From the NCBI GenBank assembly GCA_037137395.1, contig JBAXKK010000077.1, positions 1 through 12,295 of the forward strand: 12,295 nt of DNA. The letters are read 5' to 3'. Positions 104 to 12,120 of the stretch are shown here, one piece after another. Numbering within the stretch: the first letter of the stretch is position 1; the number at the start of each line of letters is the position of its first letter. This stretch comes from Elusimicrobiota bacterium. GTDB lineage: Bacteria; Elusimicrobiota; Elusimicrobia; Elusimicrobiales; UBA9959. The notes under the pieces are model-generated. The model saw only the letters and a program-made list of their open reading frames with translations. It had not been told where the DNA came from and did not search any database. The position numbers and the translations under genes are program-made.

Positions 104-703
104 TCACCTCCCCCCCGCTGCGCCGAACTTGGGGAAGACGCTCGAAAGCTTCATATTGATTCTGACCACACCTGTGCGGGAGCCGTCTTTTTTTAGACTA
201 ACTTCGGTCACTTTAAGCAACATAGGGGAATTCTCGATATCAGCCACCCACTTGCCGAACTTAACGTAGGTTGTCGTAACGGACACAACGCGCGAAACCA
301 ACAGAAAATTCCCGATCTCACTCTCGGTCTGCGCGGCAATGGAATCGAACGATATTCCGTGGGCTTTAGCCGTGGAGGTCATCATATAGTTGAGCCACTC
401 GTCTTTATCCCTGATAAGTGGAAGCCGCTTCTGATATGCCGCCAGCTTAGTCTTTGCGTCATTGTAATCTGCGTAATGGGCTGCGATTATCTGAGATTTT
501 TCCAGTTGGTCCATATCAACCTTGACCTTCGATGCCCGTGGTGCGTAAAACACCACATAAAGCATAAGCACCGCGGGTAAAGCAATAAGAAGCGGCTTTT
601 TAAAAGGCTCTATGCCTTTTTCAGCGTAGATTATAAGGATATTATCGTACATATCCTTAAAAAAAGCCGCCATTGTGTTAAACAGTGCCATTATAACCGG
701 CAT
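104..703 (-). CDS. pilO: PilO/GspM-like type IV pilus or secretion assembly protein (199 aa)
   Basis: ATG at 703 overlaps the upstream TAA (TAATG) with AGGAGG SD; one TM helix (PLLIALPAVLMLYVVFYAP), a coiled coil, then a PilO-like C-terminal pattern (VSVTTTYVKFGKWVADIENSPMLLKVTEVSL); lies directly after the PilM/PilN-like gene. Confidence 0.72.
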   Translation of the reverse strand: MPVIMALFNTMAAFFKDMYDNILIIYAEKGIEPFKKPLLIALPAVLMLYVVFYAPRASKVKVDMDQLEKSQIIAAHYADYNDAKTKLAAYQKRLPLIRDKDEWLNYMMTSTAKAHGISFDSIAAQTESEIGNFLLVSRVVSVTTTYVKFGKWVADIENSPMLLKVTEVSLKKDGSRTGVVRINMKLSSVFPKFGAAGGR

Positions 704-2274
704 TAGCCTTTCCTCCTGGCCGTGCACAATATAGTAAAGCCGGTGGATTTAATAGCCGATTCCTGGTCCGATCCGTAGCCTCCGGATCCTCCGGGAGTCT
801 CACTTTCCGTGGTGAATGATATGCCGCCATTCGGGGGTCCGAAGATCTTGAATTCCGGGGAATCCTTAAGAGCTCTGTTAAAACTTTCCACTATTCTTTG
901 TTTCATGTCGCCGGCGAGATTCGTCTCCCCGTTAAGTTTCATCTCTTTTGCCGAAGTCTGTAGTTCCGAGGTTGCAAAAGGCGCCAGGTACTGTATATCC
1001 TGCAGCCAGAGCTCAGGCGGTATTTTATCCAGAATGACCTGAAGTTTTGGGGCAAGGGAATCGGTATCGTTGACAAGCATGGACAACATCTTCGCGCTGG
1101 CCTGCATCTTTTCTATCTTGGCCCTTATCGCGTTGCCATCATTACCCTGCAGTTCTGAGGCGTCCTCCACCTGAGCGTTGATAGCGGCAATTTTTGACGC
1201 CATAGTCATTATGCGTATCTGATTGAGCACAGATAGGACCAGCAAGAGGCCCCCCAGAACAAAAACACCGCTCCACATATATTCCCGCAGCTGCTTCTCA
1301 ATCATGGCGGACGTGCTGATGCCGGAAACATCCAGAGCGAGTTTTTCAGGAACCCGGCCCCGCATGGAGGCGCCCATGGAAAAGAACTGGACAGAGACGT
1401 TATCCTTGAGTGTGGCCGCCTTGGCCGGATCCCAGATTTCCACCGGCATCGGGGATTCCTGTTCAGCCACGGCTTTCCACGTGTCCGCACCGTCGCCGCT
1501 CAGCATAAGGTATTTATATTCCTGCCCGCCGACATAACGGTCCACGAACTGCACGGCTCCTTTTATATCCAGCCGCTTGCGCTCCGACAATGTGCTGGCG
1601 GCTTCGTAATCGGCTTCCCGGTAAAGGACCGGGTAGCCGGCGCTGGAGAACAACATAAGGCTGGCGCCGCCGGAAAAATGTATGTAACCCTTGGACGCGT
1701 GATCTTTAGGATCCAGGTAAGCGAAAAAGCGCTCCACGGAACAGGGTGTTATCTCTACGGCTGTGAGTTCCAAGTCCACACTCTTGAGGATACTTATGAT
1801 AAATTCCACACTCTTGCGTTGAGTAAGGCCAAAAAGAACGCCAAGCTTTTTACCGTTTTCCAGAGGGTAGGCGGAAAAATCATACGCTATTTCGTCAAAG
1901 GAAACGGGGATATACTTCTTGGATTCAATAGGAATAGATTTATTCCAAAAACGCCTCTCAACGAAGGGCATTACAAAATAGCGGAGAATCGCGAACTGCG
2001 GCGAGAGTGTTACGACCGCGCTGGAACTGCCCCAGCTGACATTCTTTACGGCGCGCTTGAACGCGGTGATCCAGGAGGCTTTTTCGTCGAAAAAATCGCC
2101 GTTAAGCGACAAGGGGCGCAGAAGCCCCTCCCTCGCCTGAAAAGCAGTGGGGATCGTAATCAGATGCTCGGCATCCACCCGCCCGTTTTTCCCCAGCTTG
2201 GTCTGGGCGATACTGATCTCTTTGGGGGAGATATAGATTCCGATAGAATTTTTAACAACCGCGCTATGAGCCAT
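703..2274 (-). CDS. PilM-PilN fusion-like (GspL-like architecture) assembly protein (523 aa)
   Basis: Likely ATG at 2274 with AAGGTG SD. N-terminal ~315 aa resemble PilM (IGIYISPKEISIAQ; ESKKYIPVSFDEIAYDF; LMLSGDGA), followed by a TM helix (WSGVFVLGGLLLVLSVL), a coiled coil and a PilN-like segment (LDKIPPELWLQDIQY...MKLNGET). Confidence 0.75.
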   Translation of the reverse strand: MAHSAVVKNSIGIYISPKEISIAQTKLGKNGRVDAEHLITIPTAFQAREGLLRPLSLNGDFFDEKASWITAFKRAVKNVSWGSSSAVVTLSPQFAILRYFVMPFVERRFWNKSIPIESKKYIPVSFDEIAYDFSAYPLENGKKLGVLFGLTQRKSVEFIISILKSVDLELTAVEITPCSVERFFAYLDPKDHASKGYIHFSGGASLMLFSSAGYPVLYREADYEAASTLSERKRLDIKGAVQFVDRYVGGQEYKYLMLSGDGADTWKAVAEQESPMPVEIWDPAKAATLKDNVSVQFFSMGASMRGRVPEKLALDVSGISTSAMIEKQLREYMWSGVFVLGGLLLVLSVLNQIRIMTMASKIAAINAQVEDASELQGNDGNAIRAKIEKMQASAKMLSMLVNDTDSLAPKLQVILDKIPPELWLQDIQYLAPFATSELQTSAKEMKLNGETNLAGDMKQRIVESFNRALKDSPEFKIFGPPNGGISFTTESETPGGSGGYGSDQESAIKSTGFTILCTARRKG

Positions 2275-2301
2275 AAAAGTCACCTTGAATGCTGACTTTA
2301 T

Positions 2302-2330
2302 AATATAACTTATATTAACGAACGCCGCAA
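2302..2330 (-). promoter_or_regulatory. Putative sigma70 promoter for the pilMN-pilO operon
   Basis: Minus strand TTGCGG (2330-2325), 17-nt spacer, TATATT (2307-2302) in the short AT-rich intergenic gap. Confidence 0.5.
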
Positions 2331-2335
2331 TTATT

Positions 2336-4168
2336 CTATTCCTTACCCAGCATTTTTATTTCCACGATGCTTTTGGGAGTATCAGATATCTGCGTGGAAA
2401 TATCCATGCGGTCTTTTTCAATTTTATACTTGCTGGTAAGGCGCATGGAAACATAATTAACCCTGTTCTGGGCCATAGTTTCAGAGTTGGCCTCTCCGGA
2501 ATAGGCGTAACCGATTAGTTTAATTTTGGCCATGGGATAATAGCCCATAGTTTCCGCGACTTGGGCGAGCTTCTTTTCGCTGTTGGATGTAACGATAGCC
2601 GTCTCCTCCCGAAAGTATATTTTATAGCTGACCTGGCCGCTGAACTCCGCCTGAGACTCCTGCGCGCCCCCCTCACGGGAGGCCGCTTCATCTTTCTGCG
2701 CGGATTCTTCCGCGGAAGCCGCTGAAACTTTTTTAGGCGCACGGGCAGCGGCTGGTTTTTTATTAGCCAGAGGTGCCGATTTACTCTTGCCTTTACCCGC
2801 CTTGAGGGCCGCCGCGCCCTTGCCTGAAAGGGGCTTCTTCCCCTTAACTACTTTGGTCTGCGCGGATACGCCGGTCTGCTTGGACACCGCCACAGATTTA
2901 GCGACAGTCTTTGCGGTCTGAAGAGCTTTTTGCTCTTCAGGACCGGGCTTCACCATCAGGAGCCGGCGGAGATTCGTCTCGCGACCCTCCGGATCTGTCG
3001 CCGTCACTGAGAACAGATATTTGCCTGAAGGGTAGGCGGTGCCGAAAAAATTCTTGCGCCCGTTCCAGTAGCTCTGGTTATACTGCGAACCATAGCCTTC
3101 CATTTTTTGCAGTGAAACGATAGAGTTATCAGGCTGCACGGAAAAGATTTCAAATTTCCAAGAAGGTTTACCCACGGGAGATTCGAACACCGAAAACTCA
3201 ACAAGGGCGCCTTCGTTCTTCTGCACGGATATCGCCGTAGGATAGATGCCCAAAGAGACTTTTGGTCCTTTTGATTTAACGTCAGAGCTTTCCACAAGTT
3301 TGGGAACCATATCGTAATTAAAAAGGATCACCATACCGCTGATACTGGTCAATTCCTTGGGGAATTTAACCTCCGCACCCGTCAGATTGAGGTCAATGCG
3401 GGATTGGGAAATACCCCTTGAAACCAGATAAGAATTAAGGGCTATGGCCTGCCTGATGCTCCGTATCTTCACATCCACTTCTACCGTACCCTCCGGCAGG
3501 ATAAGGATGTTCGCCTTACCGAGAGTAAAAATGAGCCCGGCCAGATTTGAGAGATCGGCGGCCGCATTCGCCTTGAACACGGTTTCGTTTGCGAAAAAAT
3601 ACTGGGAGTTTATTGTGACGGCCCTGGGCAGAGAATCGCCCATATATATTTTGACGGCGCTGGATTTGTCCAGTTCCAGAAGAATCGCCCTTCGCATCTC
3701 TATCATCTTTTCGTTTATTCGACTGGTGACGCGTTCCTTGCGGGCCTGGGGCTCGTCCTGGGCTAACGCCTCCTCCTCCGAGGGCGTCTGGTCAAACCTG
3801 ACTGATTGCTGCCTCTGGACAGGCGCCTGAATAGTTCCCTCCACTTCTTTTATCGCCCCGGCTTCCAACCCCGGGTCTTTCACGGTCTTTACCCCGGTAT
3901 TCATACGCAAGGTGATCCTGGAAATATAGTCGTTAGCGAGGGATTTTTCAGAAGGCGTGCCTTTTACCAGAATGTCCATAAAGCGATCCATCGCCTCGTT
4001 ATCCTCTCCTTCGTGATACAGCCTTATGGCTTGCTCCATGGAACGGGTAAGCCCGCTCCCGGTAGAAGCGGGTTGGCCGCTAAGTCTGGACAAACCACCT
4101 CCTGAAAGCAGGAACACGGCGATAATAGCCGCGGCAATCCGGGATTTGGAAATTAAATTTTTTTTCAT
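2336..4168 (-). CDS. Exported OmpA-like domain protein with FlgD-type Ig-like domain (610 aa)
   Basis: ATG at 4168 with GGAG SD; signal-peptide-like N-terminus (MKKNLISKSRIAAAIIAVFLLSGGG); TPR-like helix pair; internal OmpA/MotB-like segment (ALNSYLVSRGISQSRI); FlgD-Ig-like YWNGRK...YPSGKYLFSVTATD; Lys/Ala-rich linker; C-terminal OmpA-like domain (IYF...KKLAQVAETM..YP..KIKLIGYA...MAQNRVNYV). Confidence 0.75.
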   Translation of the reverse strand: MKKNLISKSRIAAAIIAVFLLSGGGLSRLSGQPASTGSGLTRSMEQAIRLYHEGEDNEAMDRFMDILVKGTPSEKSLANDYISRITLRMNTGVKTVKDPGLEAGAIKEVEGTIQAPVQRQQSVRFDQTPSEEEALAQDEPQARKERVTSRINEKMIEMRRAILLELDKSSAVKIYMGDSLPRAVTINSQYFFANETVFKANAAADLSNLAGLIFTLGKANILILPEGTVEVDVKIRSIRQAIALNSYLVSRGISQSRIDLNLTGAEVKFPKELTSISGMVILFNYDMVPKLVESSDVKSKGPKVSLGIYPTAISVQKNEGALVEFSVFESPVGKPSWKFEIFSVQPDNSIVSLQKMEGYGSQYNQSYWNGRKNFFGTAYPSGKYLFSVTATDPEGRETNLRRLLMVKPGPEEQKALQTAKTVAKSVAVSKQTGVSAQTKVVKGKKPLSGKGAAALKAGKGKSKSAPLANKKPAAARAPKKVSAASAEESAQKDEAASREGGAQESQAEFSGQVSYKIYFREETAIVTSNSEKKLAQVAETMGYYPMAKIKLIGYAYSGEANSETMAQNRVNYVSMRLTSKYKIEKDRMDISTQISDTPKSIVEIKMLGKE

Positions 4169-4337
4169 TGTATTGCTCCAGCAACGCAAACCGACTGATG
4201 CAGCGCGTGAATAGTGAATACCTAGAATTTTTAATCCTGAAACACCCGATCCGCTACACTATTTAACATCTTTATATTTACCTAAATATTACGGGATTGT
4301 TACGCAAATATTGCCCAAAATTCTCTCCCCCGTTCTT

Positions 4338-9545: not shown

Positions 9546-9565
9546 AACAGCCGAGGATGGGATTT
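9546..9565 (-). repeat. 20-bp direct repeat of the tRNA-Thr 3' end (att-like copy)
   Basis: aacagccgaggatgggattt at 9546-9565 is identical to 9684-9703 (last 17 nt of the tRNA plus 3 trailer nt), 138 bp apart. Confidence 0.9.
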
Positions 9566-9683
9566 CTGCTCCCTCGCTCACTCCCGTTCGCTCATCCGCA
9601 GCCGGCCTCTCCCGCTGACGGCCGCCACTGCGGCCTTTTCATCCACCGGATGCGCGGGAGTTGGCTTCAAATCCTTTGCTTAA
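9566..9683 (-). other. 118-bp structured non-coding element between the tRNA 3' end and its duplicate
   Basis: Nested inverted repeats: ctcccgc 9609-9615 / gcgggag 9654-9660 enclose ggccgc 9620-9625 / gcggcc 9630-9635 and catcc 9640-9644 / ggatg 9648-9652; outer agcc 9600-9603 / ggct 9663-9666. Confidence 0.6.
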
Positions 9684-9686
9684 AAC

Positions 9687-9758
9687 AGCCGAGGATGGGA
9701 TTTGAACCCACAACCTATCGCTTACGAAGCGATTGCTCTACCGTTGAGCTACCTCGGC
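9687..9758 (-). tRNA. tRNA-Thr (anticodon CGT), CCA not encoded
   Basis: Minus strand GCCGAGG TA GCTC AACGGTA GAGC A ATCGC TTCGTAA GCGAT AGGTT GTGGG TTCAAAT CCCAT CCTCGGC T folds into a canonical cloverleaf; anticodon at 9726-9724. Confidence 0.96.
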
Positions 9759-9823
9759 GCCATACTCAAAAAGATCTACAGAAATCGCTCTCTGTTTCAG
9801 CGGGCGTCCAGCCCAAGGCTGCG

Positions 9824-9881
9824 ACCCACAACCTACCCCCCCAAGCTTGGGGGGGTTGCTCTACCGTTGAGCTACCTCGGC
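9824..9881 (-). pseudogene. tRNA-Thr-derived fragment, copy 2 (acceptor 5' strand + D arm + palindrome replacing anticodon arm + variable loop + 5' T-stem)
   Basis: First 26 nt and TAGGTTGTGGGT are identical to the tRNA; the inner 15 nt of the anticodon arm are replaced by CCCCCCCAAGCTTGGGGGGG; the T-loop and 3' acceptor strand are absent. Confidence 0.85.
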
Positions 9882-9946
9882 GCCATACTCAAAAAGATCT
9901 ACAGAAATCGCTCTCTGTTTCAGCGGGCGTCCAGCCCAAGGCTGCG

Positions 9947-10004
9947 ACCCACAACCTACCCCCCCAAGCTTGGGGGGGTTGCTCTACCGTTGAGCTACCT
10001 CGGC
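9947..10004 (-). pseudogene. tRNA-Thr-derived fragment, copy 1 (identical to 9824-9881)
   Basis: Same sequence as 9824-9881; palindrome at 9958-9979; lies immediately downstream of the putative promoter. Confidence 0.85.
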
Positions 10005-10017
10005 GCTCCAATGAATC

Positions 10018-10050
10018 ATTATATATTAGTAAATTAAAGCGGATTTTCAA
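10018..10050 (-). promoter_or_regulatory. Putative sigma70 promoter for the tRNA locus
   Basis: Minus strand TTGAAA (10050-10045), 16 nt, TAATAT (10028-10023), with an overlapping perfect TATAAT (10023-10018) ending 13 nt before the first tRNA-like 5' end at 10004. Confidence 0.55.
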
Positions 10051-11109: not shown

Positions 11110-12093
11110 TTACTTTCCAACTCCCGCGGAAAGCGAGAACAGTTTATCGGTGGCAGACTTAATGCCGCCGGTCACTTCAGCGACCATCCCGGAATCCCAA
11201 TCCTTCTTTTCAACACGCAGGAAACTGGTTTTATCCACGCGGTTGTCAAAGCGGCCTATGGGGATATGAAACTTCTGACCCGCCGAGGTCACTGTGATAG
11301 TGCCCGGCACTTCAGAGCTTCGCTCAAGATAGTCCATATCGTCACAGCCATAGTCGTTGAGCATAACTTCCATAGGCACGCCGTGATGTAATATTGAGCC
11401 CGGATCGTTAGGGTTGGTGCGGGCCGTATTCTTACGGCGGCTTTCTTCAGGGGTCACCCAGACATAAAGAATAACGGCGCGCTTAAGGATCTCGGGATCC
11501 ATTTCACCCAGCGAGTACTGATAGCCGAGCGGGGCCGGCAGAGGATAGGTTGAGCCATCGGGACCGCCGCGGGCGGCTTCTATAACTATAGTTTTTCCTT
11601 CAAAGGATTCCGGATAGGCCGCGTGTTTCTCATCAAGCATGGCGCGAGCTTCTTTTTCAAGAGCGGCGGCTACGGCAATATGAACGCTCTTATCGAGACC
11701 GGTAAGGCGCGTGGGTATACCGGCCTTCTCCCCGGCCTTATCTATGCGCCTCATCAGGAGATCACCGGCAGAATGGGCCTTTACAACGTTCTTTTTAATC
11801 AGATCCTGATAATCCTCATTGAGCAGATGTATCAGCGTGCCCCAGTCCTTCGTGTTCTGGAAAGGCCTGTTGCCCGCCTTAAAGAATATGCGGATATAGC
11901 CGAGTTTCACCAGTTCATCGTCGATACGGCGCATTATGTGCACATAAGGGAAGTCGTCCAGCTGCAGATTGGAACCGATGTGAAATTCTTTCTTAAGCCG
12001 CTCGGGCTCAATGTTGGCAAGAAACCGCCGCACTTCGGATTTACCTGAAGCCGGCAGGGCCAGCAGAAGCACGATATCAAATGTTTTTTCCAT
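11110..12093 (-). CDS. Hypothetical P-loop protein, nucleoside/nucleotide-kinase-like topology (327 aa)
   Basis: ATG at 12093 with GGGAGG SD; N-terminal IVLLLALPASGKS Walker A variant, TIVIEAARGG second strand, AVILYVWVTPEESRRKNTAR lid-like segment; own promoter and terminator. Confidence 0.75.
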   Translation of the reverse strand: MEKTFDIVLLLALPASGKSEVRRFLANIEPERLKKEFHIGSNLQLDDFPYVHIMRRIDDELVKLGYIRIFFKAGNRPFQNTKDWGTLIHLLNEDYQDLIKKNVVKAHSAGDLLMRRIDKAGEKAGIPTRLTGLDKSVHIAVAAALEKEARAMLDEKHAAYPESFEGKTIVIEAARGGPDGSTYPLPAPLGYQYSLGEMDPEILKRAVILYVWVTPEESRRKNTARTNPNDPGSILHHGVPMEVMLNDYGCDDMDYLERSSEVPGTITVTSAGQKFHIPIGRFDNRVDKTSFLRVEKKDWDSGMVAEVTGGIKSATDKLFSLSAGVGK

Positions 12094-12120
12094 ACAACCT
12101 CCCGGTAAAATTATCACTTA

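Follow-up and report, generated by a model that had tools for sequence, protein, structure and literature searches.

The two tandem units located upstream of the tRNA-Thr gene in the window, a term that denotes here the whole stretch of 12,295 nucleotides that was analyzed, are probably gene-less remnants of a selfish element that targets tRNA genes and consists of a GIY-YIG nuclease and short hairpins, the enzymology of which is proposed by analogy. This reading is supported by the finding that a related unit and a nuclease gene are jointly present at the tRNA-Asp gene of the same genome and jointly absent at that gene in a relative. Throughout the text, G000 denotes the genome holding the window and G001 the relative, which belongs to the same genus; L, C and X denote loci, contigs and runs, respectively.

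On the minus strand, a promoter-like region is followed by unit 1, unit 2, the intact tRNA-Thr(CGT) gene and a downstream repeat of 138 bp, in this order. The features are as follows.

10018..10050, minus strand: promoter-like region, by consensus match only (one sigma-70-type site against 0.4 expected)
9884..10006, minus strand: unit 1, 123 bp, by repeat comparison
9958..9979, no strand: anticodon-arm plug of unit 1, a perfect 22-nt palindrome replacing tRNA positions 27-43
9909..9945, minus strand: T-loop insert of unit 1, a probable decayed double hairpin of 37 nt, by in-register alignment to L347
9761..9883, minus strand: unit 2, 100% identical to unit 1, with the junction backed by run contigs
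9835..9856, no strand: anticodon-arm plug of unit 2
9786..9822, minus strand: T-loop insert of unit 2
9687..9758, minus strand: intact tRNA-Thr(CGT), CCA not encoded (ARAGORN; Rfam RF00005, 74.4 bits)
9546..9683, minus strand: downstream tRNA-linked repeat of 138 bp, ending in a direct copy of the tRNA 3' end

A perfect -10 hexamer is found at 10018-10023, upstream of the units, and relatives of the same genus have a similar AT-rich stretch before tRNA-Thr; transcription of the tRNA probably includes the units as a leader. The arrangement given in the original prediction, with two identical 123-bp units between the promoter-like region and the intact tRNA-Thr, was borne out by ARAGORN, Rfam and the repeat comparison. 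The start of each unit had been placed at the tRNA +1, which needs correction, as the repeat begins 2 nt before it and 28 nt are common to both units and tRNA-Thr, giving three copies of this segment.

Each unit is composed of tRNA-Thr positions -2 to 26, the anticodon-arm plug, the variable loop with the 5' strand of the T-stem, the 37-nt insert, a T-arm remnant and a 25-nt tail. The plug is a hairpin of 22 nt with a 9-bp stem and a 4-nt loop, which occupies the position of the 17-nt anticodon arm. The predicted swap of the arm was thus found, although its exact extent, given as the inner 15 nt exchanged for 20 nt with the closing A-T pair kept, is equally well described as replacement of the whole 17-nt arm by the 22-nt hairpin. 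The latter description is favored because the arm of tRNA-Asp closes with T-A but the plug found at tRNA-Asp closes with A-T.

In the 5' half, the tRNA sequence is unbroken as far as position 26, and the insertion point coincides with the anticodon arm, as might be expected if the units were parts of a split, permuted or intron-containing gene from which a working tRNA is processed. This explanation is very improbable, because the anticodon is absent instead of being interrupted, there is no 3' half, and the intact gene follows directly. The units contain no 3' acceptor strand, CCA or anticodon, and neither ARAGORN nor Rfam calls them as tRNA, the only Rfam match being the intact tRNA.

The neighboring genes in the window encode an alpha/beta hydrolase and O-antigen-ligase/TPR proteins. 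ORFs of 111 and 205 aa overlie the units on the plus strand and were treated as by-products of the repeat. Two further regions on the minus strand were observed: positions 104-4189 contain PilO-like, PilM-like and OmpA-domain ORFs with Pfam matches near or below the cut-off, and positions 11110-12117 contain an ORF of 335 aa with no Pfam match, to which a coding sequence upstream of tRNA-Thr(CGT) in several relatives is similar by eye.

The part of the unit behind the T-stem strand, which had been described as 65 nt of unrelated sequence, begins with 37 nt that probably represent a double hairpin, now decayed, within the T-loop; the T-arm remnant comes next. The insert sits after the T-C of the T-loop and before this remnant. 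When it was aligned globally and in register with the insert of L347, a tRNA-Ser copy beside a GIY-YIG gene that was chosen by eye among four T-loop inserts tested, of which two (L125 and L109) were not significant, 1 of 5000 shuffles for G000 and 0 of 5000 for G001 reached the observed level. An unanchored local alignment of the tail against 137 nuclease loci did not rise above shuffles. A pattern scan for the T-loop arrangement in 301 genomes gave 15 matches, which were mostly ordinary tRNA ends and included one real plugged copy (L368); this copy is not independent, as the pattern had been derived from the window and L347. From the alignment, the insert is a probable double-hairpin plug of the T-loop akin to that of L347.

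The G000 assembly consists of 174 contigs with 7.7% contamination, and the palindrome contains homopolymer runs, so that an artefact of assembly or sequencing has to be considered. In run X1, which is possibly the source run, a 151-nt contig of the unit has a depth of 22.1 compared with 10.6-11.6 for the flanks, and a 32-nt contig of the unit-to-unit junction has a depth of 11, as expected for two copies. The unit is present in five of the six DNA runs, namely X1, X3 (from the study of X1), X4, X5 and X6, with an X6 contig spanning the junction (9768-9920), and it also occurs in G001. The two copies, which had been proposed for checking against reads, are thus backed by the depth and the junction contig of X1, and an artefact is so improbable that it can practically be set aside.

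A comparison of the orthologous locus shows that the copy number varies among relatives, being 0, 1 or 2. G001 carries one unit, with three differences from the unit of G000. In X2 and X5, contigs from related populations run from tRNA-Thr straight to the promoter region with no units, and in X5 the depth of the unit is 7.3 against 7.5 for the flank. Among 80 family genomes searched, the 5' part of tRNA-Thr is single-copy in 35 of the 37 that matched, and a scan of 401 genomes of the phylum for the arm-swap pattern gave matches in G000 and G001 only. The variable copy number agrees with the original view of a repeat system that targets tRNA genes. Two independent pseudo-copies were seen upstream of tRNA-Thr(CGT) elsewhere: L008 in G019, a control locus, has hairpins inserted in the D-loop and no gene, and L020 in G025 is heavily decayed.

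Arm-swapped copies were found for two of the 42 G000 tRNAs tested, namely Thr and Asp(GTC). The possibility raised at the outset that other tRNA fragments carry palindromic anticodon arms was therefore realized within the same genome, by a sister unit in the following cassette.

G000:C130:3979-4171 and G000:C20:34950-35273 (L317, L318): complete cassette of a plugged 5' copy, intact tRNA-Asp(GTC) and an 84-aa GIY-YIG gene

The Asp plug, on C130, replaces the anticodon arm with a hairpin of the same dimensions as the Thr plug (22 nt, 9-bp stem, 4-nt loop). Six of the nine pairs are identical between the two plugs, and the other three are altered on both sides. C130 and C20 overlap by 55 nt, and the 84-aa ORF on C20 (34950-35204, minus strand), which matches PF01541 above the cut-off, begins 16 nt past the CCA. 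At the tRNA-Asp gene of G001 (L320), the same upstream flank is found with neither the unit nor the nuclease gene, and a GIY-YIG scan of this locus gave no match. The 5' part of tRNA-Asp is doubled in one of the 33 matching family genomes, which is G000. At L180, a plug with C and G runs lies at a tRNA-Asp gene in a context nearly identical to that of G000, beside a truncated nuclease that is 59% identical over 39 aa.

Several other features of G000 and its relatives were observed. At the Asp locus, the leader directly before the tRNA +1 can pair over 12 bp with the CCA and trailer, and the Asp and Thr units share their final 7 nt. A small GIY-YIG gene with an internal TAA (G000:C11:43842-44309, L319) is separated by GC-rich hairpins from tRNA-Ser(CGA), which lies just downstream of it, and G019 has a more eroded form of this gene at the matching place (L419). 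Tandem units of 115 bp at C45:34-186 and C73:13148-13281 of G000 combine the 5' 22-24 nt of tRNA-Arg(GCG) with a different repeat and have no arm plug.

The association between the nuclease and tRNA genes extends well beyond this genus. With the L071-L099 loci set aside, a search by the protein alone gave 72 GTDB homologues, 62 of which have a tRNA gene no further than 400 bp away, always on the same strand, and 18 of the 30 homologues of the phylum lie within 400 bp of a same-strand tRNA; the chance expectation is about 2%, as calculated from 43 tRNAs in the 2.7 Mb of G000. Strict arm swaps occur at 24 of 97 nuclease-plus-tRNA loci (18/63 GTDB, 6/18 phylum and 0/16 further family loci) and at none of 54 control loci (0/18 Thr orthologues, 0/21 GIY-YIG loci at tRNA-Gln(TTG) and 0/15 other tRNA loci), where the loci counted are phylogenetically non-independent and the strict detector misses cases such as L180. 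Among those of the 16 further family loci that were listed, several have hairpins in the D-loop or T-loop by eye and others have none.

The layouts include a plugged 5' copy followed by the gene and the tRNA, a tRNA followed by the gene and a plugged 3' copy, and tandem gene-less copies upstream. The last layout occurs beside nuclease genes, with six copies at L155, four at L178 and two at L175, and at L118 and L336 the order is plugged copy, gene, plugged copy and tRNA. Plugged copies thus accompany a minimal Slx1-like GIY-YIG gene of about 85 aa at many tRNA isotypes and in several phyla, which is stated as an association. The expected co-occurrence with a nuclease or transposase gene held in part: GIY-YIG genes lie beside arm swaps at tRNA-Asp and in relatives, but no nuclease or transposase gene is present among the seven long ORFs scanned in the window. 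As side observations, long arrays of plugged tRNA copies exist in Bacteroidota (L147, L155, L178 and L160), with 11 copies counted at L147, and ARAGORN calls some plugged copies as tRNAs with odd anticodons, which is a likely source of mis-annotation.

The best solved relatives of the nuclease in the PDB are UPF0213 BH0048 (E = 7.9e-5) and Slx1, and an Atlas search returned GIY-YIG clusters only. A quick tree, in which most forks are open, places the tRNA-linked proteins apart from the conserved Gln-linked ones, with no co-evolution with the plugs visible. The Gln-linked proteins form a second small GIY-YIG clade (L071-L099; G000:C11:30305-30514), conserved near tRNA-Gln(TTG) in many family genomes and free of arm-swapped copies. 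Among the GIY-YIG genes of G001, which is 91% complete, only the conserved small one and a long UvrC-like frame were found. None of 180 GIY-YIG loci lies beside the exact Thr palindrome, and one site among them, on C192 of G019, has a related C-rich hairpin, for which the pattern was picked after the site had been seen. In a metagenome scan with a loose pattern, the 115 loci among the matches listed were nearly all due to chance, with two ordinary tRNAs, one plugged tRNA-Arg copy (L204) and no GIY-YIG gene. None of the 22 loci from a scan of viral sequences was a plugged copy by eye.

The palindrome itself is dispersed, as the original prediction of a REP-like element implied. The 20-nt core of the plug occurs within two mismatches in 10 of 80 family genomes, where a reversed control matched once; there are 21 copies in G019, two in G000, where the plug is found only on C77, the contig of the window, and 0-3 in each of the other 78 genomes. 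The palindrome is nearly confined to the family (9 of 401 phylum genomes) and gave no match in viral sequences. In 28 loci surrounding dispersed copies, no tRNA was called by ARAGORN, which indicates that the palindrome itself is not specific to tRNA genes. Two sites in G019 are located within genes.

L024/L375 (G019:C37:2058-2077) and L398: palindrome inserted in frame

At these sites, the palindrome stands where the G000 orthologues have a short stretch instead, adding 6 nt net, or two codons, in frame. By their motifs, the two genes are putatively a glmU-like and an inositol-monophosphatase-family-like gene. Other copies in G019 fall in long open frames that are putative genes.

This dispersal away from tRNAs in G019 raises the question of whether the palindrome spread by another route, through a Y1/RAYT-type transposase or template switching at stem-loops, and struck an ordinary 5' duplication of a tRNA, with the GIY-YIG gene as a fellow passenger. 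REPs are known to insert in frame in genes (PMC3733652), plain 5' tRNA duplications with no plug exist in G000 at Pro-GGG, and G000 has four Y1 transposase matches, two of which lie about 85-90 bp from a 24-nt hairpin with similar C-run and G-run ends. However, the Y1-linked hairpin has a different core and is not a plug at any of the 42 G000 tRNAs, and template switching that perfected a native arm would retain letters of the arm, which the plug does not. Moreover, the arm swaps track the GIY-YIG gene, as seen in the counts against the controls (24/97 vs 0/54), and the unit and the gene occur together at tRNA-Asp of G000 and are both absent in G001. Such a route is considered unlikely. As a separate observation, the 24-nt hairpin forms a family of 10 copies in G000 (C4:35616, C47:5038 and eight other sites), of which two adjoin Y1 genes as a REP/RAYT-like pair.

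Another explanation is that the units yield a functional anticodon-less tRNA-like leader RNA, which would act as a decoy or antitoxin for a nuclease or tRNA-targeting enzyme, or as a tuner of tRNA processing, with the copy number setting the dose. The units are flanked by the promoter-like region and the tRNA and share their strand, the D arm is retained, the plug is a stable stem (fold z of -2.5), tandem arrays occur upstream of a tRNA and nuclease gene at L155 and L178, and tRNA-linked repeats of E. coli can give processed sRNAs (PMC8144298). In addition, the units of G000 and G001 are identical at 121 of 124 positions (97.6%), compared with 87-91% for the neighboring genes. An identity above that of the neighboring genes indicates constraint or a recent transfer of the locus, so that an RNA or decoy role keeps some weight, and the cassette reading is strained in this respect, because the unit is conserved more than a decaying scar should be on the sequence comparison.

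On the other hand, neither a 3' acceptor strand nor CCA is present in the unit, structure prediction gives the G000 and G001 units different folds, neither of them a cloverleaf, and two pairs are broken in the second hairpin of the T-loop. The unit at the Thr locus is missing in most relatives, as judged from the single-copy 5' part in 35/37 genomes and from the X2 and X5 contigs, and the same palindrome lies inside protein-coding genes, where a role in RNA mimicry is implausible. The GIY-YIG nuclease SsnA does not bind RNA (PMC11893778). In two of the six RNA runs listed (X15 and X18), the coverage consists of mature tRNA of other organisms with foreign flanks. The functional tRNA-mimic RNA of the original prediction is therefore not supported, given the missing 3' acceptor strand and a predicted fold other than a cloverleaf, and we regard such an RNA as improbable.

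The selfish nuclease and hairpin element would account for the units as follows. At the Thr locus, a 5' part of the tRNA gene is present in duplicate upstream, with an intact gene retained behind the same promoter-like region. A tRNA gene is a string of stem-loops, and the duplication would preserve the working gene. The spare copy has short GC-rich palindromes in its arms and loops, and the same palindrome is also dispersed, including at in-frame sites in genes. By association, the plugged copies go with the minimal GIY-YIG gene, including at the tRNA-Asp locus of G000. By analogy with SsnA and NTS, the nuclease may recognize the hairpin in single-stranded DNA and nick beside it, and repair from a donor bearing the hairpin may overwrite the existing stem-loop. 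At the Thr locus, the nuclease gene would have disappeared or the enzyme would have acted in trans, and the 28-bp direct repeats may have allowed the unit to double by slippage or unequal recombination. On this reading, the units would act at the DNA level even if they are transcribed; those in the window are probably passive leftovers.

A further-reaching proposal is that the minimal GIY-YIG nuclease drives a base-precise replacement of one hairpin by another in DNA, writing its own palindrome over tRNA arms and loops in genes, and that the tandem plugged copies are selected as DNA or RNA decoys that shield the intact tRNA gene. This is speculative and, in our estimate, rather unlikely; if true, it would represent a self-limiting selfish system and a natural short-patch writing of DNA by an 84-aa enzyme.

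No description of plugged tRNA copies accompanied by a GIY-YIG gene was found in the literature surveyed, which included few subscription papers. The present results point to a widespread class of selfish DNA in which a bare GIY-YIG nuclease and hairpins would overwrite the stem-loops of tRNA genes. Such a class would give stand-alone Slx1-like proteins a testable role, and may explain why genomes from metagenomes contain pseudo-tRNA calls and short peptides inserted in frame. G000 provides a ready test set: the nuclease gene is intact and accompanied by its own plug at tRNA-Asp, tRNA-Thr carries a related plug, and the allele of G001 is empty.

Among known systems, phage and E. coli elements resemble the locus in its location beside tRNA genes. 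SegB of phages T4 and T6 cuts tRNA genes at a T-arm motif (PMC2330249) and drives segmental amplification (PMC13096335); its GIY-YIG gene is likewise lodged among tRNA genes, and tandem amplification is possible there as well (PMC2330249; PMC13096335). However, SegB is a phage homing enzyme that acts on double-stranded DNA, and the parts of these two papers considered here describe no hairpin-plugged tRNA copies. Of the features expected for a SegB-type enzyme, a location among tRNA genes and empty alleles are found (62/72 homologues near a tRNA; the empty tRNA-Asp allele of G001), but a separate DNA-binding region is absent, as the 84-aa ORF comprises the catalytic domain only and scores 20.5 bits with the group I intron endonuclease model TIGR01453, far below its cut-off of 56 bits.

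The TLRs of E. coli are likewise arranged in tandem next to a tRNA gene and have one end of it in common, but they lie downstream and repeat the 3' 18-19 bp (PMC8144298), whereas the units in the window are found upstream, contain the 5' part and have plugs. The TLR layout is instead fitted by the downstream unit at 9546-9683 (PMC8144298), which belongs to a repeat family other than that of the upstream units. Downstream units ending in a copy of 17-21 nt of the tRNA 3' end were observed for 8 of the 36 G000 tRNAs with enough flank (window 9546-9683, minus strand, and C24, C26, C43, C59, C65, C113 and C130 of G000); seven of the eight also hold an inverted copy of the T-loop of their own tRNA, and these repeats are well conserved across the genus. 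With respect to functional or split tRNAs, the anticodon and both acceptor strands are not recoverable from the unit.

The REP/RAYT systems (REPtrons) and the palindromic elements of Rickettsia are similar in having dispersed short palindromes, some of them in frame, and one small linked enzyme (PMC3733652). The 21 copies in G019 represent such a dispersed multi-copy palindrome. In contrast to the REPs described in PMC3733652, the plug does not have a defined GTAG/CGTC tag, it replaces the arm base-precisely, and the linked enzyme is a GIY-YIG nuclease instead of an HUH tyrosine transposase. Furthermore, the palindrome does not lie beside a Y1 gene in G000, as the plug is on C77 and the four Y1 matches are on other contigs.

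The Ssn system with its NTS/SRM repeats (Chenal et al. 2025, PMC11893778) is similar in pairing a single-domain GIY-YIG protein of less than 100 aa with short hairpin repeats, which flank it and are scattered elsewhere in the genome as well, and SsnA cuts single-stranded DNA near its own hairpin repeat, NTS (PMC11893778). A single-domain GIY-YIG protein of about 90 aa has its counterpart in the 84-aa ORF at the tRNA-Asp locus, outside the window. However, the main text of PMC11893778 contains no mention of tRNA, whereas in the partial gene copies described here tRNA arms are replaced or interrupted by hairpins, and by eye the plugs do not match the NTS consensus as printed in that paper. The matches to UPF0213 BH0048 and Slx1 fall under the Slx1-like group (PMC1564403), and the sequence comparison leans against membership of the nuclease in CDD cd10448, the SsnA clade. 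The nuclease and hairpin element described here appears to work in the manner of an Ssn/NTS or REP-type system, but for each of the two some of the membership features examined are absent.
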